A model generated the notes under the pieces. The model was given only the letters and a program-made list of their open reading frames with translations. It made no database searches and had not been told where the DNA came from. A DNA stretch of 64,000 bases from a phage: sequence record PZ445530.1; one strand, given 5' to 3'. Within the stretch, counting starts at the first letter, position 1. Each line of letters starts with the position of its first letter. The translations under genes were made by a program, and so were the position numbers. Below are positions 1 through 50,608 of this stretch, piece by piece.

Positions 1-88
1 TGATGACCTAGACTGGAGTCATTCTTCACCAGGATCATCTGCAAGTTCATATGATATCGTTGCTTTTCAGGAATAAGGAGAGGGTGTT

Positions 89-571
89 ATGTCAGATTTT
101 ATGTGGAAAGTAGGCTATGCCACTCCTGAAATGTGCGAGGCTTGCTTTGTGAAAATAGGCCGCGAGGATATCGACAAAGTGATCCTTAAGTTTCGTGATG
201 TGACTGTGATCGGCAACCGAGTGCTTAAGCACTTAAAGAATCTGAAGCTCACCAAAAAGAAGTTCTTCGGGCTTTTCGAAGAGAAAGTTGATGCTTGGAC
301 CCATTGCATTCAGGAAGCTAAATCTCACTACAGTGCTATCGTTACTCCAGAACGGGCAGCTAAGATGGAAGGATTCATTAACAGCACAGAATTTGAGTGT
401 CTGAAAGCTGCACTCGATAGTTATCCGAAATGCCTTAAGCACTTGGACAAGTATGCAGAAAAGGATGGGGAAATGTATCTAACCCTGGACGCATATTATG
501 AGATGCAAGAAATTTTAAATTTAGATTTGACATTGGTATCCACCGAGTATACAATAGGTATCCGGGTTTAA
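89..571 (+). CDS. hypothetical protein
   Basis: 160-aa ORF, GGAG-type SD upstream of ATG; no recognisable motif. Confidence 0.5.
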   Translation: MSDFMWKVGYATPEMCEACFVKIGREDIDKVILKFRDVTVIGNRVLKHLKNLKLTKKKFFGLFEEKVDAWTHCIQEAKSHYSAIVTPERAAKMEGFINSTEFECLKAALDSYPKCLKHLDKYAEKDGEMYLTLDAYYEMQEILNLDLTLVSTEYTIGIRV

Positions 572-577
572 CACTAG

Positions 578-604
578 GCCCTGCCCGAAAGGGTGGGGCT
601 TTTT
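578..604 (+). terminator. rho-independent terminator
   Basis: GCCCTGCCC-GAAA-GGGTGGGGC stem-loop followed by TTTTT; identical hairpin recurs at 11566. Confidence 0.6.
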
Positions 605-1387
605 GCATTAGGAGACAGCAAATTGAAATTTATCTACAAAGAACACTACCACAAAGGTGTTGTGTGGAGTCTATTTGACGGGTCTGGTGGTGCAGTCATT
701 GACTGGGCAAAAGCTGGGTACCTGTGCCTGTGCTTTAATGCAGAAGGCGCTGATCACGGCAGTTATGCAGAGGTGATCACCGATCATCCCAACATTCACT
801 ATGTGGACTATTGGATCGACCCGTGGTTCCCTCAGGAAACTTTTTGCATGTATCCGGCTCCAGATTTTATTCTTGCATTTCCTCCGTGCACGCATTTAGC
901 GGTATCAGGTGCTGCACATTTTAAGAAAAAGCTGGCTAAGGACCCCATGATCCAAATTAATGCTGTAAAGGATGCTCGGGTTGCGGAAGAGCTGGGAGAG
1001 ATTTACGATTGCCCGTGGCATGTAGAGAATCCTGTGGGTGTTATGTCCACACTGTGGCGCAAACCTGATTACCGTTTTCACCCTTCGGATTATGGCGGGT
1101 ATTTACCGGAAGATGATGTAAACCCATGGTTTCCTGAATTTATAGCTCCACGTGATGCCTATCCAAAAATAACTTGCGGCTGGATAGGTAATGGATTTAT
1201 AATCCCAGCCACAAAACCTGTCCCGCAAATAGTTGACGCGGTTAGCGGGTATTCCATGCAACACGCCAAGCTGGGTGGAAAGAGTGCAAGAACGAAGATG
1301 ATTCGAAGCCTCACACCACGTGGCTGGGCAAAAGCCGTATTCCTAGCAAACGAGCCTGTAGTAAGGAGCAGAATTAATGGGAAGTAA
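593..1387 (+). CDS. DNA cytosine-5 methyltransferase-like protein; true start probably near 623 because 593 lies inside the terminator hairpin
   Basis: motif I-like LFDGSGG, motif IV-like FPPCT (Pro-Cys), motif VI-like HVENPVGV; AGGAG SD at about 610. Confidence 0.4.
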   Translation: MGLFALGDSKLKFIYKEHYHKGVVWSLFDGSGGAVIDWAKAGYLCLCFNAEGADHGSYAEVITDHPNIHYVDYWIDPWFPQETFCMYPAPDFILAFPPCTHLAVSGAAHFKKKLAKDPMIQINAVKDARVAEELGEIYDCPWHVENPVGVMSTLWRKPDYRFHPSDYGGYLPEDDVNPWFPEFIAPRDAYPKITCGWIGNGFIIPATKPVPQIVDAVSGYSMQHAKLGGKSARTKMIRSLTPRGWAKAVFLANEPVVRSRINGK

Positions 1388-3455
1388 ATTTATGGCATCT
1401 GCATACAACCGTTTCGGTGAGCCAAACCCGAAAGCAACTAAGTATAAAAGTGGGGGAAGTGTGAAACGAGACTATCGTGATGAAAAAGAAGTTGAAACTG
1501 TAGAGACTGTTTTAGAAAATACTAAAATTGTCCCTGTCCCACAACAAAATATCGGTCTGATGGCTGCACAATATTTTGGTGTGCGATCAGCATTGTCACA
1601 AGAAGACGGTGTGACAGTCACTGCAACATATTTCCCATATTACGACCGCTACGGAAATCTGTCCGGTTTCAAAAAGCGTGACTGGACTATTCCTAAAGAA
1701 CAAAGGGGCCACTTCTCCGTTGTTGGCATCGTAAAGGCCAACTCCCAGATGTTTGGTCAAAAGCTGTGTGCATCTTCCAACAACCGTAAGCAGATTAACG
1801 TTTGTGAGGGGGAAGGTGATGTTATTGCAGCATGGCAGGCTGCATATCAGATACAAGTAAAAGGGATTCTCACCAACGCTAAAGCCCCGGCAAAGGTGAA
1901 GCAGTGGGCTAAAGAAGTCCAGGACGGGATCGATGCAGTTATCAACGGTGGTGATCTGGCAGGAAAACCATGCCTGCCTTTTGTTGGAATTAACTGTGGA
2001 TGTGCAAACGCAGTAGATACTTTTGCAAACAATGAGAAGTTTATCCGTAGCTATGGAACAGTTGTGCTGGCAATGGATAACGATGCAGCTAACGAGGTAG
2101 AGAAGCAAAAACACGTCATTAAAGGTGTTGAGGCCACGCACAATATCGCAGCATTTTTGATGGCTGATAACGTTTACCACGTAGAATACCCTGGTGAAGT
2201 AAACGACCCTGACGGTGTAAAAGATATCCGAGACATGCTGAAGGCTAAAAAGCTGGAAGATATTGTCAACATGTTCCGGCATCCTGTTAAATATGTGCCT
2301 GATGCGGTGTCGGATTTAGAAGACTTCTCTATCGAGTCTTTGCGGAAAAAGACTTCCAACGGGGTAGATATCAGCGCAGAGTTCCCAAAACTGCAAAAAA
2401 TGCTAAAAGGCTTGCACAAAGGGACACTCGTAATGCTTACAGGTCCATCAGGTGGCGGTAAAACAACCGTAGCTAAAAAACTGGAACACTGTATTGCAAG
2501 ATACCTAATGGACCCGACATGCCCGAAGGCTGATGACTATGAAGAGGATGATCGTCTATGTATGATCCATCTTGAGGAGGACCCAGAGGAAGCAATTAAC
2601 TCCTTGTATGCAAACCAGTTAGGGTTTGATGTTAAAGAGTTTGTTGAAGATCCTAGCCAGTTTTTAACTGATCAAGAACACGCAGAGATTCACCAATCAT
2701 GGGCAAAAGCTGGAAAAATCAAAGTGTTCAAACATTTCGGGTCTATTCCGGTGGATGAGTTGATTACCAAGCTTAAGCAAATGGTTTGCCTGTACCATTG
2801 CCGTTATATTGTGCTGGATCACCTGTCCATGGTAATTTCAGGGCTTAATGTTAAGGATGAGCGAAAAGAACTGGACATGGCTATGACTCAGCTGGCTGCG
2901 TTTTGTAAGCAGTTTAACGTGTTTATCTTGGTGATCGCTCACCTCAAACGTACAGAGATTGTGCCTCCTAAGGACAAGGATGGTAACCCGTTACCTTTCT
3001 GGTATCCTGTGCGAAAAGAGAATTTGCGAGGATCGGCGGGGCTTGAACAGTTGAGTTGGGTAGTCATAGGTGTCGAGGCCGAAGAAATGGTGGATCGTTC
3101 TCGTGGACGTGTCCGTCTGGTAGGTCTTAAAAACCGTCCAGCAAAAACTCTAGGTATTGCTGACACTTTGGTTATGGACCCGCACACAGGTAAGTTCCAT
3201 GATGCCAGTAATTGGTACTGGGACAAAGAAATGCAAATGTTTACAGACGGAGAAGGTGGGGAGGTTGTTTGGAGACCTCAGGCTATGTTTGAGGATCAGG
3301 AGCATGCAGTTGTAGAAACACCTATGGGCAAGGTTGTGGCTGATAAGGTTGTAACTCCTACTGTTAAGCCTGTTGACACGCAGGAAGACCTCCAGTACGA
3401 TGATCCGTCCTCTGACCATGTTCCTGGTTTTGAGGATGATGAAACACCTTTTTAA
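1377..3455 (+). CDS. bifunctional DNA primase-helicase (T7 gp4-like)
   Basis: TOPRIM-like CEGEGD; Walker A GPSGGGKTT; DnaB-like C-terminal half; acidic tail ending FEDDETPF. Confidence 0.8.
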   Translation: MGSKFMASAYNRFGEPNPKATKYKSGGSVKRDYRDEKEVETVETVLENTKIVPVPQQNIGLMAAQYFGVRSALSQEDGVTVTATYFPYYDRYGNLSGFKKRDWTIPKEQRGHFSVVGIVKANSQMFGQKLCASSNNRKQINVCEGEGDVIAAWQAAYQIQVKGILTNAKAPAKVKQWAKEVQDGIDAVINGGDLAGKPCLPFVGINCGCANAVDTFANNEKFIRSYGTVVLAMDNDAANEVEKQKHVIKGVEATHNIAAFLMADNVYHVEYPGEVNDPDGVKDIRDMLKAKKLEDIVNMFRHPVKYVPDAVSDLEDFSIESLRKKTSNGVDISAEFPKLQKMLKGLHKGTLVMLTGPSGGGKTTVAKKLEHCIARYLMDPTCPKADDYEEDDRLCMIHLEEDPEEAINSLYANQLGFDVKEFVEDPSQFLTDQEHAEIHQSWAKAGKIKVFKHFGSIPVDELITKLKQMVCLYHCRYIVLDHLSMVISGLNVKDERKELDMAMTQLAAFCKQFNVFILVIAHLKRTEIVPPKDKDGNPLPFWYPVRKENLRGSAGLEQLSWVVIGVEAEEMVDRSRGRVRLVGLKNRPAKTLGIADTLVMDPHTGKFHDASNWYWDKEMQMFTDGEGGEVVWRPQAMFEDQEHAVVETPMGKVVADKVVTPTVKPVDTQEDLQYDDPSSDHVPGFEDDETPF

Positions 3456-3513
3456 TGTTTAACAAAGAGTGGGAGGGGTAGTACAACCGCCTCCCCTTTA
3501 AGGAGAACTGTAT

Positions 3514-5937
3514 ATGAGCATGTGGTCGTTCGATTTTGAGTCATCCGGTTTGCTGGAAGACCCAGATCTTTATTATCACTGCGGCCTGTTTAAAGAGCTG
3601 AATAAGAACCGTTTTATGCTGTTCCTTCCTCTGAATGACCGCACACACTACTCCGAGGAGGATATAGAGAAGGCCAAGAACTTTATTCTGGCAAAGAAAA
3701 CTCTTTATAAGGATTTTGAAGTTCGCATAGCAGATTTTTCGGAGTTGGAAGGTTGGCTTACAGGAAATTCCGACTGGTCACCAACAGCTTTGAACTGCCA
3801 TAACTGCTACAGTTATGACTTTATGCTGATGGAGAGATTATCCGGTATTCATTTTGATATGTTCCGTGATCCTAAATGTATGGGGACTATCAACGACCAC
3901 CAGGTTAACCTGTTTGATACGTTGGCGATGAGCCGAATCTTGTGGCCTGATCGCCCTTTACCAAAAGGTTGTCCGGACTCCGTATTCAACCCGGTTACTA
4001 AGAAAATGCAGCCTGTTGGTCCTCACGGCCTTATGGCATGGGGCTACGCCCTTGGTAACCAGAAAGTTCAAATTGATGATTGGCGCGATCTTCCGTTGTG
4101 GAAGTATGTGGATCGTGTATTCGAGGACGTTATCATCCAGGAGCTACTCTGGAAAGAGCTGGTAGCGGAATCAAAAGGTGTATTCTACGGCAAATCTGAC
4201 ATGCAGAACTTTATGTACGATCCTGCCAAAGAGAAGCCGAAAGGGTTCAAGAAGATCACCTGGAAGAACGCATTGCGCCGGGGTATGCTGCAACACTTCC
4301 TGATGGAGCTGCAGGCCCGTCAGGGTGTGTATTTTGACATAGATGGAGCTATTGCTTTACGTGACCGTTGCGATGCGTGGATGAAAGAAATCGCTGATCG
4401 TGTTGAACCACAACTGCCTTTAAAAGAGCTGTCAATGTCTCAGCGGCCCAAGTTCCCTGAAAAGCCGTTTAACCAAGATGGGACAATCTCTAATAATGGT
4501 TGGAAATGGTTAAAAGATAAGCTTGGCTATCCTGTGGACATGAGTGCTTTAGAGTTCAAAGCCCCACCTAAGCGAGCATTTACCTCTACAGGAGATGTCA
4601 GTAAGATGGGGATAAAATGGTGTGAAGAGATGGGCTGCAAAGACCACGATAAGATGGCTGATTTCTTGAGAGGCTATATTAAGGGCACCTCCACACCACA
4701 ACCTTTACCTAAAGAGCTGATGGATCAGGCAATAAGCGATCTGCAGCAGAAGCGAATGCCTGACTGCAAGATACCTATGAAAATCAGCAATCAGGACGAT
4801 ATTAAGCGATACCTGATCAGTGCTGGTTGGCTTCCGACAATGTGGAGAACTAAGGATGTAACTAAAGACAGCAAGAAGAAAGCTTTACCTGATGCAGATG
4901 TTGATGCACGAGTATATGCATATATGGACGAGCTTTTGGAGTCAGAGTATTGTGACCTAATTATCAACTTCTGGAACAAAACTGATGCTAAGTTCCAGAC
5001 AACCGTGCACAAGTTCCGAAGCTTTCCTAACTCCGAAAGGATTAAAAAGGAAGTATTCGGGAAAATACGTAGAAAAGCTAGGGCACTTATTACTTCTCCG
5101 CAACTGAAAGATACGTTTGGACACCTGTGTCCGAATCTTGAAAAATTGAACGGAGAGATGGCTAAAGATATCGTCTTATGGTTATCATTGCGAAACCGCA
5201 GATCGGTACTTGATCCAATCAAGGAGGATAAGGTTGACACTGGTCTTCTTAATCACCCACGTTTGAAGATTGACCATAAGCTTCCTGCTAAAAGCTCTGG
5301 ATTAACAAACACTTCCAGACAGAAACACAGTATTTGTGCAAACATGCCTAAACCCTCTCCTAAAGTGGTTATGGGTAAAGAGATGCGTAGCTTGTGGGGT
5401 GTTCCTCCAGGATACTTTGAGATCGGTATCGACGGGTCCAACTTAGAGCAGCTTATCGGGGCTTGGGGTGCCTTTGAGTTCGACAACGGCCTGTATTACG
5501 ATGTTGTAAGTAACGGAGACGCACACCAAAACAATGCTGAGGCATATACAAAAGTAGCAGGCAGAGAGGTGTCCCGTAACGACGGTAAACCTATCACGTA
5601 TGGGGTTATGTACGGGGCACAAAAAGATAAAGTTGCAGATATGCTGGACATCTCTCCAGAGTTGGGACAAAGGGTAATCGATGCGCTTTGGGATGCCAAC
5701 CCTGGTCTTAAGGGCCGTAAAGAGGATCTGGAGAAATTCTGGGAAGCAACGGGTAAGAAGTTTATCTACTCTTTTGATGGTCATGCCATCTGGACCCGAT
5801 CTAAACACTCTTTACTTAATGCATACCAACAGAATGGTGGTGCATCGCTGTGTGACTTGGTTGGGATACTTATGCACCACCAAATGGTGAAGCGTGGGTG
5901 GTACGATGAAGGTGTTCGTCGTATTATCTATTACCAT
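3514..5937 (+). CDS. DNA polymerase family A, exon 1 (3'-5' exo domain plus polymerase motifs through motif B)
   Basis: exo motif FDFESSGL; motif B KPITYGVMYGAQ; frame ends ...IIYYH immediately before stop, where motif C HDE is expected. Confidence 0.8.
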
Positions 5938-6779
5938 AAATAACATTGTGGCTTCGTGCAGTGATGCACGTCGAAAACCTCTTTAATTGACGGGAAGGCT
6001 AAGTTGACTTTTACACCTAAACATGGTAAAAGCTCAATATGCTAATCCGCAGCGAAGACTAAAGGGGTGTAGTTAAAATGGCTAGATCAGTTGAGTATCA
6101 CGGATATACCGTGTTTGATGATGGAACAATACCTTTATCGAAACGTGATCATACAACAATGTTTTGTTTTGATAATGGTCGAGGTTACCTTTGCGTAACC
6201 ATGTTCATCGAGGGGAAGCAGTGCACAAAAGGTGTCCACCACTTGGTTGCTGAATGCTTTGTATCAAACCCTGATCCTGAAAGGCTCACATGGGTGAACC
6301 ATAAGGACGGAAACAAATACAACAATGCATACTGGAACCTTGAATGGACCACCCCTGGTGGAAATATCAAACACGCTTATGATAATGACCTCAGAGTAAG
6401 GCCAGTCGGTGAGTATAATGCCAACGCTGTACTGACCGAGGATGAGGTAACGGAGATTTGCGAACTGTTACAAAGTGGTTTACGACAATGCGAGATTAGG
6501 GATCTTGGGTATCCTTATGAGACGGTCAGAGCCATAAAGCAAAGAAGACAGTGGAAACATATCTCTAAAAACTACACCTGGTAGTAACGTTCAGAGACTA
6601 TCGAAAGCATAGCGCCAACATAAATTGGTGCGAAGAAGCGAGTAGAGTAGACCAGCAAGTGCGGTCGAAATGGGAGGTGCCTTGGTAACAAGGTAGTGAG
6701 ATAGTCCGATCCATACAGGAAACTGTATGGCTGTGCACGTAATGGTGCGGGGTAGCTTAACGACCTACCTGAACTATTG
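5938..6779 (+). mobile_element. group I self-splicing intron interrupting the DNA polymerase gene
   Basis: conserved core elements P (AATTGACGGGAAGG ~5985), Q (AATCCGCAGC ~6044), R (GTTCAGAGACTA ~6589), S (GAGATAGTCC ~6698); exon 1 ends in T, intron ends in G; exon frames differ. Confidence 0.7.
6078..6584 (+). CDS. intron-encoded HNH homing endonuclease
   Basis: NHKDGNKYNNAYWNLEW HNH motif; ORF nested between intron Q and R elements; own SD. Confidence 0.75.
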   Translation: MARSVEYHGYTVFDDGTIPLSKRDHTTMFCFDNGRGYLCVTMFIEGKQCTKGVHHLVAECFVSNPDPERLTWVNHKDGNKYNNAYWNLEWTTPGGNIKHAYDNDLRVRPVGEYNANAVLTEDEVTEICELLQSGLRQCEIRDLGYPYETVRAIKQRRQWKHISKNYTW

Positions 6780-7133
6780 GATGAGTACCAACTTCAAGTC
6801 CCTGACACACCGAAGTATAAGACTGTGTACACCTTCGACACAATTGAAGAATTGGAAGCATTTAAGGCAGAGCAGGAGGCCAAACTTCATGTGTTCGACG
6901 GTCATAAGTACAAAAAGGCACGCAAGGATGAAAACGGAAACGAAGTGGTTGACAGAGACGGAAACACGGTGTACGATCCTATCTTGAACGATGACGGAAA
7001 GCTTGAACTTATCTGGAGTCCTGTGGGCGAAATGGTGGTACATTGCTTCTGGCAAGCTTCTAAAATGATGGGAGTCCCGTTCCAGATCACAGGTGAATAC
7101 TTGTGTGGTCGTAATTGGGGTGATTGTCACTAA
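6780..7133 (+). CDS. DNA polymerase family A, exon 2 (C-terminal part incl. motif C)
   Basis: splicing joins ...YYH to DEYQ... giving HDE; C-terminus ...GRNWGDCH resembles T7 pol ...GPNWAICH. Confidence 0.65.
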   Translation, partial: DEYQLQVPDTPKYKTVYTFDTIEELEAFKAEQEAKLHVFDGHKYKKARKDENGNEVVDRDGNTVYDPILNDDGKLELIWSPVGEMVVHCFWQASKMMGVPFQITGEYLCGRNWGDCH

Positions 7134-35703: not shown

Positions 35704-36018
35704 CTACCAGGTTACTGTCAAGTAGGCAACCGTATTATTTTTCTCTGGGGAGATGCCAACAACATCTACCTGCAGACCTCCTGCCCTTAAATCTCCAACA
35801 ATGTGCGGGAAGTAATCTGAGAGATGCGAGGGTAGATTTATCGAAAATCCGCACCCCAGAAAGCCTGCTAACGCTTTATTTTGTATCTCCCCCACAATCG
35901 AATCATAAATGGAGTTAAGCTCGTCAGGGAGCGTTACAGGACGTTTTAGCGCTAACTGGTGTAATTTGTCCTTAGCACTCATTTTCATTTCAGGTCTACC
36001 TCTGGTGGTGCCAACCAC
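35704..36018 (-). CDS. hypothetical protein
   Basis: 104-aa ORF. Confidence 0.45.
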   Translation of the reverse strand: MVGTTRGRPEMKMSAKDKLHQLALKRPVTLPDELNSIYDSIVGEIQNKALAGFLGCGFSINLPSHLSDYFPHIVGDLRAGGLQVDVVGISPEKNNTVAYLTVTW

Positions 36019-36518
36019 ATAAATGGCGGCAAGCCTAAACGGTTTTTCTTATCCCACACAAAATATGCATATGCTTGCCCGTCAGTTCTGCCATTTGATT
36101 GAAAAGATGGACGCTTAGATATTGTGATCACAGAGGTAGGTGCATTATCAAGCCACCATTCAAATCTGGCTTTGCTTTCCAGAAAATTAAGACGCAAAAG
36201 CATAATAACTACGTCAGCATCTTTCAACGCCTTGTCTACAAACTCACGAGCCAAACTGTATGGTGGGTTGGTGATAATACAGTCAACATGGTTGTATTCT
36301 GTATTCAGATAGTCAACACCTTCTTGGATTTCTCCCCATGCAGATCCTAACGGCATACGGGAGTAGAACACACCTGAGGCACTATTCCTGCAAGGCTCTA
36401 AGTAGGTCCAGTCTTCTGGGAACGGAATAAGGTCATACAGCCCTTCTGCACACCACTCCGGTGTCACATACTCATCGTAAGCGTTACGTTGTTCATCAGG
36501 TTTTCTAGCACAAGTCAT
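35985..36518 (-). CDS. DNA methyltransferase (N6-adenine/N4-cytosine type, DPPY class)
   Basis: catalytic motif DCIITNPPY; upstream YVTPEW. Confidence 0.6.
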   Translation of the reverse strand: MTCARKPDEQRNAYDEYVTPEWCAEGLYDLIPFPEDWTYLEPCRNSASGVFYSRMPLGSAWGEIQEGVDYLNTEYNHVDCIITNPPYSLAREFVDKALKDADVVIMLLRLNFLESKARFEWWLDNAPTSVITISKRPSFQSNGRTDGQAYAYFVWDKKNRLGLPPFMWLAPPEVDLK

Positions 36519-49338: not shown

Positions 49339-49797
49339 TTAGAAGTTTGTTTTTACACGTCCCTTCTCATCAACCTCGTTGTTAGCTAAAAGCGTTACAA
49401 AGTCTGTGAAACGAACATGAAGAACCCTTTTCTTATCAAGGTATCCTAAAGCCACCCCTGAGAAATTTAGCATCAAAGGGGCTAAAGAAGCTCTGGCACT
49501 GAAATGCTGTTGTTCTACCCTTCCAACACCCTTAGTGTAGGATGGGTTAAGATTGTAAGTTCTGAATCCCAGTTTTGTTGGAGCTTTAGAATTAAAAACG
49601 ACTTTATAGCGTTTCTTACTCAACTTATGCTCCAGGATAAGCATTCCCTTATCACCTTTGATAAGTTGAAAATCTGTAAAGTGCTCTTTTAAGACGAAAG
49701 GTAGTGCCAGTCCCATCGCCTGTCCTCTTTGTACCGCTGTCTCACCAAAAGCTTTTGCATCAGTAAGTTCTTTGGTCAAGTCTATGCTTTTGATCAT
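49339..49797 (-). CDS. hypothetical protein
   Basis: 152-aa ORF. Confidence 0.5.
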   Translation of the reverse strand: MIKSIDLTKELTDAKAFGETAVQRGQAMGLALPFVLKEHFTDFQLIKGDKGMLILEHKLSKKRYKVVFNSKAPTKLGFRTYNLNPSYTKGVGRVEQQHFSARASLAPLMLNFSGVALGYLDKKRVLHVRFTDFVTLLANNEVDEKGRVKTNF

Positions 49798-50608
49798 ACC
49801 TGGTCTCCAAAATGTATTGTAGTTCTTTCTTACCTATACTCTTCATTCCAGCAGTCTTACCTGCTTCTTCTTGAAAAGAAGAATAGCATTCAGCAAACAC
49901 TCTGTCAACACCGTTAACTAAAGATTTTATGAAATATGTTGATTCTTCAGATTTTGGGTCATCATCCCCCAATACTTTTCCAGCATTATACCCAACACGT
50001 CTTACACAGAAGTCGTAGTCATCTGGTGTGCTAAAAGAAAATAACTTATTCTCTCCAATCTCTACAGGATCCCTATTGCACGCCTTTTTCTCCCAAATTT
50101 GGAAAACACATGGCACGTCATAAGGTTTGCCATTAAGTAAAAACGAATTCTTAGGGCACCTTTCGCTGTAGACAAGGTGCATCGACATGTCCAGTTTGTT
50201 TGCAAAAAATATTTTTTCAAATGTCCGTGGCAAGATGAAGGCTATAGCCCCTCCAAGCTCTAGCAATGATGCACAATGGTTAAAGAATTTGCAAGCTAAG
50301 GATGAATTCTTGCCAAATGGTGGGTTACCTATGAAGACATCTGCCTTGGGATGCACCTCCAAGAAGTTTGCCTGAATGCACGGTGTTGGTCCTTCAAATT
50401 CAGGATCTGGTACTAAATCGTACGACAGTATCTCTGAAAATAGTTTTGAAAAAGAACCCCTTCCAGCAGAAGGCTCAACGTATGCACAATTCCCATACTT
50501 ATCTTTTACTTTACCAACAAGATATTCTGCATACTCAGGGTTTGTGTAGTATTTGTCGTTGGACTCTTTCTTGCTCAAAGTGCCTCCAAAAGGAAAAGGG
50601 AGGCGCAA
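49760..50608 (-). CDS. DNA N6-adenine methyltransferase-like protein
   Basis: motif I-like VEPSAGRGSF and motif IV FIGNPPFGK; non-ATG start. Confidence 0.6.
   Translation of the reverse strand: MRLPFPFGGTLSKKESNDKYYTNPEYAEYLVGKVKDKYGNCAYVEPSAGRGSFSKLFSEILSYDLVPDPEFEGPTPCIQANFLEVHPKADVFIGNPPFGKNSSLACKFFNHCASLLELGGAIAFILPRTFEKIFFANKLDMSMHLVYSERCPKNSFLLNGKPYDVPCVFQIWEKKACNRDPVEIGENKLFSFSTPDDYDFCVRRVGYNAGKVLGDDDPKSEESTYFIKSLVNGVDRVFAECYSSFQEEAGKTAGMKSIGKKELQYILETRYDQKHRLDQRTY

Follow-up and report, generated by a model that had tools for sequence, protein, structure and literature searches.

What does a short methyltransferase-like phage protein do when its catalytic motif reads Pro-Cys-Thr where Pro-Cys-Gln is usual, and does this substitution indicate a chemistry other than methylation? 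This question is raised by a gene near the beginning of a 64,000-nucleotide stretch of phage DNA (sequence record PZ445530.1; hereafter referred to as the window). A preliminary description of the window, made from the sequence alone, had recognized a C5-methyltransferase-like protein in the open reading frame (ORF) 593-1387 and had suggested that the altered motif may reflect a different substrate or reaction, for example hypermodification. Our analysis of its motifs, relatives and modelled fold indicates that 623..1387 most likely encodes an orphan, S-adenosylmethionine (SAM)-dependent DNA cytosine-C5 methyltransferase of a large family of short 'Dcm-like' phage proteins (about 225-260 amino acids), the enzyme being an orphan in that it has no partner restriction enzyme. 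The coding sequence and its motifs are given below, with residues numbered in the 254-amino-acid protein that starts at TTG 623.

623..1387, plus strand: predicted coding sequence of a short Dcm-like DNA cytosine-C5 methyltransferase (254 amino acids, TTG start; based on the ORF, PHROG 757 and the AlphaFold2 model)
671..691, plus strand: motif I, LFDGSGG, the SAM-binding glycine loop (residues 17-23)
878..892, plus strand: motif IV, FPPCT (residues 86-90), with the catalytic Cys89 encoded by TGC 887-889 and Thr90 where Gln is usual
1025..1033, plus strand: motif VI, ENP (residues 135-137), in which Glu135 is equivalent to the ENV glutamate
1160..1183, plus strand: motif VIII-like YPKITCGW (residues 180-187), with Lys182 where canonical enzymes carry QxRxR
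1190..1297, plus strand: variable segment of about 35 residues (residues 190-225), the only candidate target-recognition region
1304..1324, plus strand: motif IX-like RSLTPRG (residues 228-234)

The residues expected of a C5-methyltransferase are strongly conserved when counted in 124 diverse members of the family. Motif I aligns to SLFSGAGG of M.HaeIII, SLFDGIATG of DNMT3B and LFAGLGG of M.HhaI. In motif IV, Cys89 is conserved in 117 of the 124 proteins and is aligned with Cys81 of M.HhaI and with the PCN motif of DNMT3B, and Phe86 is found in 110. The glutamine of PCQ is not found at the position after the cysteine, which Thr90 occupies. As 107 of the 124 relatives also carry Thr here, it is the standard residue of the family, maintained under purifying selection. 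Nor do all active enzymes have Gln at this site: in the PDB profile alignment, DNMT3B, an active 5-methylcytosine (5mC) enzyme, reads SPCNDLS against PPCTDLAV of the family. Motif VI is similarly well kept (Glu135 in 121/124, Asn136 in 115/124 and Pro137 in 122/124). The motif VIII region of the family takes the form Y-x-K-(K/R)-T-C-x-W in place of QxRxR, with Lys182, Thr184 and Trp187 conserved in 115, 113 and 120 of the proteins, respectively. Further downstream, RSLTPRG, which judged by eye appears to resemble the canonical RxLTxRE, retains Arg228 (115/124), Pro232 (115/124) and Gly234 (114/124).

The chemistry of this family is informed by a characterized homologue. Phage K42, a strain 95% identical to KarlJaspers (Bas06), was used for the isolation of mutants that escape retron Ec86; all four mutants (4/4) had lesions in a 711-bp dcm gene, loss of which led to escape, and such a Dcm is encoded by 34 of the 35 sequenced Ec86-sensitive phages (bioRxiv 10.1101/2023.08.16.553469). 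The same preprint named Cys82 of K42 Dcm as catalytic and E128, K175 and K176 as substrate-binding, and liquid chromatography-mass spectrometry revealed high 5mC in the multicopy single-stranded DNA (msDNA) of the retron when K42 Dcm was expressed and none with the C82A/E128A/K175A/K176A protein (bioRxiv 10.1101/2023.08.16.553469), a quadruple mutant from which the requirements for single residues are not separable. KarlJaspers Dcm (711 bp, 236 amino acids) and the window protein share 54% identity across 235 amino acids (BLASTP E 2e-86). By residue count, its C82 lies in FPPCT, its E128 in ENP and its K175-K176 in FKKTC, and the counterparts of C82, E128 and K175 are all present in the window protein as C89, E135 and K182; Lys182 stands at a position for which the authors of the K42 work drew a parallel with the base-contacting residues of DNMT3A. 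Both proteins belong to PHROG 757, have similar lengths (236 versus 254 amino acids) and share FPPCT, ENP, K-x-T-C-x-W and RSLTPRG, and both genes lie close to replication or helicase genes. In contrast, their phages belong to different families, KarlJaspers being a siphovirus (Drexlerviridae) and the phage studied here an rV5-like myovirus. Their variable segments also differ in class, DxNPGWAKxGGKS in KarlJaspers (DKDNPGWAKTGGKS) versus GYSxQHxKLGGKS here (SGYSMQHAKLGGKS), and both classes recur in the family.

As K42 Dcm yields 5mC and its Cys82 lies in FPPCT, a family enzyme with Pro-Cys-Thr makes ordinary 5-methylcytosine. The proposal that Pro-Cys-Thr signals a different chemistry is therefore not upheld, given the prevalence of Thr in the family, the PCN of DNMT3B and the 5mC made by K42 Dcm. 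In its most specific form, this proposal would have the enzyme transfer a group other than methyl, for example from host carboxy-SAM (Cx-SAM) to give 5-carboxymethylcytosine in the manner of CmoX, or carry out the first step of a hypermodification. Candidate CmoX enzymes have been picked by SPPC together with an Arg in place of the motif X Asn (R350, which binds the carboxyl of Cx-SAM), and their genes typically lie beside cmoA and an amide ligase gene (PMC12783734). CmoX of Synechococcus phage S-B43 (PDB 8yf3; PMC12783734) accordingly has SPPC, Arg350 and cmoA/cmoY as neighbours, whereas the window protein has FPPC, with Phe86 widely conserved as described above, and a conserved Asn near its C terminus (Asn243, 84/124) that is likely, by inference only, the motif X residue. 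The annotation of the near-identical phage WalterGehring comprises 236 features, many of its genes being labelled 'hypothetical', and includes none of cmoA, the amide ligase gene (cmoY), TET/JBP or deoxycytidine monophosphate (dCMP) hydroxymethylase. Moreover, the K42 homologue with the same motifs gives 5mC, and the high restriction sensitivity of phages of this type, considered below, argues against a bulky genome-wide modification. The FPPC motif, the lack of annotated partner genes and the K42 result together make such an alternative chemistry very improbable.

Assignment to the cytosine-C5 methyltransferases does not depend on the motifs alone. The protein matches PHROG 757 ('DNA methyltransferase') with an E value of 3.4e-87 over query residues 10-261, and the similarity to this methyltransferase family is far beyond chance. 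Relatives are annotated as 'putative site specific DNA methylase', 'DNA methyltransferase', 'DNA cytosine methyltransferase' or 'Dcm-like C5 cytosine methyltransferase'. Homologues form 3555 clusters at 90% identity and at least 2043 representatives at 50% identity (the latter at E<=0.001); they are present in 1506 phage records, chiefly of Escherichia, Klebsiella and Salmonella phages of several families, and nearly all are 210-260 amino acids long. The Pfam family of canonical C5-methyltransferases, PF00145, was matched at E<=1 by 19 of the 28 family sequences scanned; three of the matches that were checked surpass the gathering score of 22 bits, covering profile positions 4-94 only (motifs I-IV). 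In a search of the PDB with phmmer, the single sequence gave only noise besides a 26-residue match to motif I of M.HaeIII. The family profile found only DNMT3B, DNMT3C and M.HaeIII there (E 0.1-1.3), which were aligned from motif I through motif IV.

The modelled structure points in the same direction. With the family alignment as input, AlphaFold2 gave a confident model, with a predicted local distance difference test (pLDDT) score of 89.9 and a predicted template modelling score of 0.89. The best 50 Foldseek matches in the PDB were DNMT3-family methyltransferases (DNMT3A or DNMT3B chains) together with the prophage CP-933R methyltransferase 3g7u, and matches among viral structures (BFVD) were phage cytosine methylases. 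The top fold matches are all C5-methyltransferases, and DNA methyltransferases rank above Dnmt2 in both fold searches. Taken together, PHROG 757, the PF00145 matches in relatives and the profile and fold matches in the PDB make the C5-methyltransferase assignment sound, even though the sequence is very divergent. Thus, the view of the preliminary description that the protein is a homologue of C5-cytosine methyltransferases is borne out. Of the profile collections, PHROG gave a strong match for the protein itself (PHROG 757), and Pfam and NCBIfam gave none.

These data also bear on the idea that the protein has the methyltransferase fold without methylating double-stranded DNA, either because it is a dead enzyme with a DNA-binding or regulatory role, because it acts on RNA or tRNA as Dnmt2 does, or because its substrates are only single-stranded replication intermediates. 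The strong conservation of the catalytic Cys, the Glu and the SAM motifs in the 124 relatives would be unexpected if catalysis had been lost; a DNA stem is a substrate of the K42 homologue; and the ranking of DNA methyltransferases above Dnmt2 does not favour an RNA substrate. In addition, missing protection at unrelated recognition sites is uninformative about activity. We therefore regard this idea as unlikely.

The window protein nevertheless differs from the canonical C5-methyltransferases (PF00145, including M.HhaI, M.HaeIII and E. coli Dcm) in several respects. Its length falls short of theirs by about 70-100 residues, and a separate target-recognition domain is almost lacking. It carries Thr for Gln after the Cys and Lys for the arginines of QxRxR, and shows detectable sequence similarity to them over motifs I-IV only. 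In the family alignment, variability and gaps are greatest at residues 190-225, which also have the lowest pLDDT of the model (68-83). The small size of this recognition region would account for the short length of the protein and for the appearance of DNMT3 catalytic domains, which likewise have a small one, as the best structural matches. However, the DNMT3A and DNMT3B catalytic domains are only 13-15% identical to the window protein, and DNMT3 enzymes, unlike the window protein, have regulatory domains and act on CpG as DNMT3L-assisted oligomers. To our knowledge, the members of this family are the smallest DNA C5-methyltransferase-like proteins.

Judged by its fold and its conserved residues, the enzyme most likely follows the standard covalent mechanism of C5-methyltransferases. 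Cys89 of FPPCT would attack a flipped-out cytosine at C6, Glu135 of ENP would protonate N3, and Lys182 would contact the base, replacing the arginine of motif VIII. The methyl group of SAM would then move to C5, and beta-elimination would free the 5-methylcytosine.

Several observations weigh against this reading of the gene as an orphan cytosine-C5 methyltransferase, or limit what can be drawn from its homologues. Pfam and NCBIfam scans of the protein itself gave no match, and PF00145 was absent even at E<=10. In a profile-profile comparison with M.HhaI (query sequence identical to 10mh_A), the larger version of which set local profiles of 124 family members against those of 40 HhaI relatives, just motifs I-IV aligned (E 0.01-0.03); motifs IX and X and the position of the CmoX Arg could not be mapped in this alignment, and an alignment in global mode was spurious and was discarded. 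The canonical QxRxR of motif VIII is absent, and the second Lys of K42 Dcm, K176, has Ile183 as its counterpart here, a position at which 81 of the 124 relatives carry K or R. Because the variable segment is of another class and Ile stands at the K176 position, the target specificity of K42 Dcm cannot be inferred for the window enzyme. The CCWGG target of K42 Dcm was itself assumed from E. coli Dcm and is unmapped, its backing consisting only of msDNA mutants that abolish defence (bioRxiv 10.1101/2023.08.16.553469). A further possible indication comes from Klebsiella phage KP36, whose DNA is fully resistant to EcoRII despite 155 sites; in the paper describing it, the resistance was attributed to the host, as a cytosine methyltransferase gene had not been seen in the phage (PMC3620542). 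We found that gp74 of KP36 (NC_029099, 47552..48244, minus strand) is a family member, with 48% identity to the window protein (E 2e-67); the Dcm of the host is a confounder of the EcoRII result. Finally, our literature search turned up neither methylomes nor activity measurements for any of the rV5-like phages; methylation and restriction-digest data are absent from the rV5 genome paper, and the Durham collection paper does not cover rV5-like phages. Counts of CCWGG, GATC and other sites in the window relative to Markov expectation (CCWGG 0.85, GATC 1.01) are uninformative about specificity.

Three of these features, namely the separate class of the recognition segment, the Ile at the second Lys and the Lys in place of the motif VIII arginines, leave room for the rV5-type enzyme to depart from a plain Dcm, through a very short or relaxed specificity, through action mainly on single-stranded or replicating DNA, or through use of an alternative donor to SAM, for instance the Cx-SAM of the host. 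We consider such a departure very unlikely; if it were true, the family would be mechanistically distinct from the canonical enzymes. For the assignment as an orphan cytosine-C5 methyltransferase, a CCWGG-like specificity is possible by analogy with K42 Dcm. Our analysis establishes homology, fold and residue conservation, and we infer the activity, timing, target sequence and biological role of this particular orthologue.

The timing is suggested by the position of the gene. Many Vequintavirus phages of Escherichia (rV5_ev147, naam, slur16 and WalterGehring among them) match bases 1-4000 of the window at 98-99% identity, 113 records spanning at least 80% of these bases, and the gene lies in the replication module. 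The flanking genes and the elements upstream of the methyltransferase gene are as follows.

89..571: hypothetical gene (160 amino acids), first in order and 5' of the methyltransferase gene, with its stop codon at 569-571
527..555, plus strand: sigma-70-like promoter match, TTGACA-17-TACAAT, a consensus match only (11/12), within the 3' end of the upstream gene
576..601, plus strand: hairpin resembling an intrinsic terminator, with 11 pairs, a GAAA loop and a T run, located between the upstream stop codon at 569-571 and the methyltransferase start
593..622, plus strand: in-frame 5' extension from GTG 593, lying 5' of the publicly annotated start
610..615, plus strand: Shine-Dalgarno-like AGGAGA, 7 nucleotides 5' of TTG 623, read from the sequence
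1377..3455, plus strand: DNA primase/helicase gene, DnaB-type (Pfam DnaB_C and AAA_25; annotation in relatives)

The ORF does exist on the plus strand, opening with GTG 593 and closing in frame with the stop codon at 1387, and its motifs I, IV and VI are real. Its proposed start at 593 has to be revised, as the GenBank relatives naam and WalterGehring annotate the start at TTG 623, which gives the 254-amino-acid protein. GTG 593 is part of the 3' arm of the 576-601 hairpin (fold energy -22.8 kcal/mol, z -2.4), which has the appearance of a terminator for the upstream gene, and the Shine-Dalgarno-like sequence fits TTG 623; for these reasons GTG 593 was rejected as the start, and 593..622 is probably untranslated. 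The hairpin begins about 20 nucleotides 3' of the promoter match at 527-555, and the methyltransferase start codon follows soon after. A transcript from this promoter match would need to read through the hairpin or would keep it as a 5' leader.

Downstream, the ATG of the primase/helicase gene overlaps the methyltransferase stop by 11 nucleotides, and the gene for a family A DNA polymerase comes next. We propose that the methyltransferase gene would be translationally coupled to the primase/helicase gene and expressed with the replication genes. On the basis of its place in the replication module, the promoter-like site at 527-555 and the primase/helicase overlap, the enzyme probably methylates newly replicated phage DNA. 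Among the BFVD structures, proteins of 1126-1397 amino acids from uncultured phages hold a domain with a matching fold, and one of them is annotated 'Helicase/UvrB, N-terminal'. These matches and the recurrent placement of the gene next to helicase genes hint at a functional link with replication proteins.

Two further observations concern this region and its relatives. The DNA polymerase gene of the window is split (3514..7133): its first ORF stops at 5943, an HNH-type homing-endonuclease-like ORF of 168 amino acids occupies 6078..6584 between the polymerase ORFs, and the ORF 6777..7133 is probably the C-terminal part of the polymerase. In WalterGehring, the polymerase is annotated as a two-piece joined coding sequence with a homing endonuclease inserted; in naam, it is one unbroken piece of 2778 bp. 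Moreover, 99% identity to E. coli rV5-like phages is shown by about 16-39 records that are titled 'Campylobacter phage' and list Campylobacter jejuni as the host (A12a, MG065666, is one example); in these records, the Campylobacter host label is probably wrong or reflects a contaminating coliphage.

The methyltransferase gene is not the only one of its kind in this phage. The preliminary description had counted three methyltransferase-like genes and had taken them as evidence of broad anti-restriction modification. The other two are as follows.

35985..36518, minus strand: mini N6-adenine-methyltransferase-like gene (177 amino acids) with NPPY (in IITNPPYS) and EPCRNSASGVF (PHROG 799, E 4.9e-67)
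49760..50608, minus strand: N6-adenine-methyltransferase-like gene (282 amino acids) with NPPF and EPSAGRGSF (PHROG 5172, E 4e-129; PHROG 799, E 2.6e-13)

Both proteins show gamma-type N6-adenine features, with TP...EPxxGxGxF followed by NPPY or NPPF. Their Pfam matches (EcoRI_methylase and Dam for the 177-residue protein, Eco57I and MTS for the 282-residue protein) are sub-threshold, and their NCBIfam matches also lie below the curated cut-offs. The WalterGehring orthologues, bas51_0176 for the shorter and bas51_0200 for the longer gene, are annotated as putative N6-adenine methyltransferases. The shorter gene had been called DPPY-type; it is indeed methyltransferase-like, as PHROG 799 indicates, but the motif reads NPPY, so the DPPY label was dropped, and the gene lies on the minus strand, the plus-strand translation of 35985..36518 holding five stops. 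The NPPF motif reported in 49760..50608 was confirmed. For the latter gene, the longest ORF of 282 amino acids starts from TTG, but the WalterGehring orthologue is annotated as 819 bp (272 amino acids), which makes the start uncertain. Several methyltransferase-like genes are thus present, and their number in this genome type is four rather than three when a gene upstream of the window is counted: in the relatives, a putative N6-adenine enzyme of 441 amino acids (naam_81 or bas51_0070) is encoded about 1 kb before the position of the window start.

It could be supposed that these three methyltransferases, or four in the full genome, jointly give broad protection from host restriction, as several such genes are present and orphan methyltransferases of phages are commonly assumed to be anti-restriction factors. 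However, the BASEL study found Vequintavirinae with the same gene set to be 'exceptionally susceptible' to restriction-modification, apparently without effective protection, and found in Drexlerviridae no pattern tying methyltransferase genes to restriction resistance (PMC8594841). Any protection, moreover, can only be site-specific. Broad protection is accordingly improbable, and the suggestion of broad anti-restriction modification is not supported, in view of the marked susceptibility of the Vequintavirinae (PMC8594841). Site-specific protection against particular enzymes is possible. For the cytosine-C5 methyltransferase, the biological role could be protection from one particular restriction system or, conversely, a liability as a retron trigger.

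In summary, neither the gene nor its family is new: more than 100 public genomes of near-identical phages carry the gene in annotated form, and one homologue has been characterized. Our analysis indicates that Pro-Cys-Thr, rather than marking an unusual chemistry, typifies a very large family of minimal C5-methyltransferases in phages, many members of which are overlooked by standard Pfam and NCBIfam profiles. The recognition of DNA by a protein with about 35 variable residues may be of modest interest to methyltransferase specialists. Because the homologue in another phage triggers retron Ec86, the rV5-type copy could serve both as a site-specific anti-restriction tool and as a liability that is detected by host defences.

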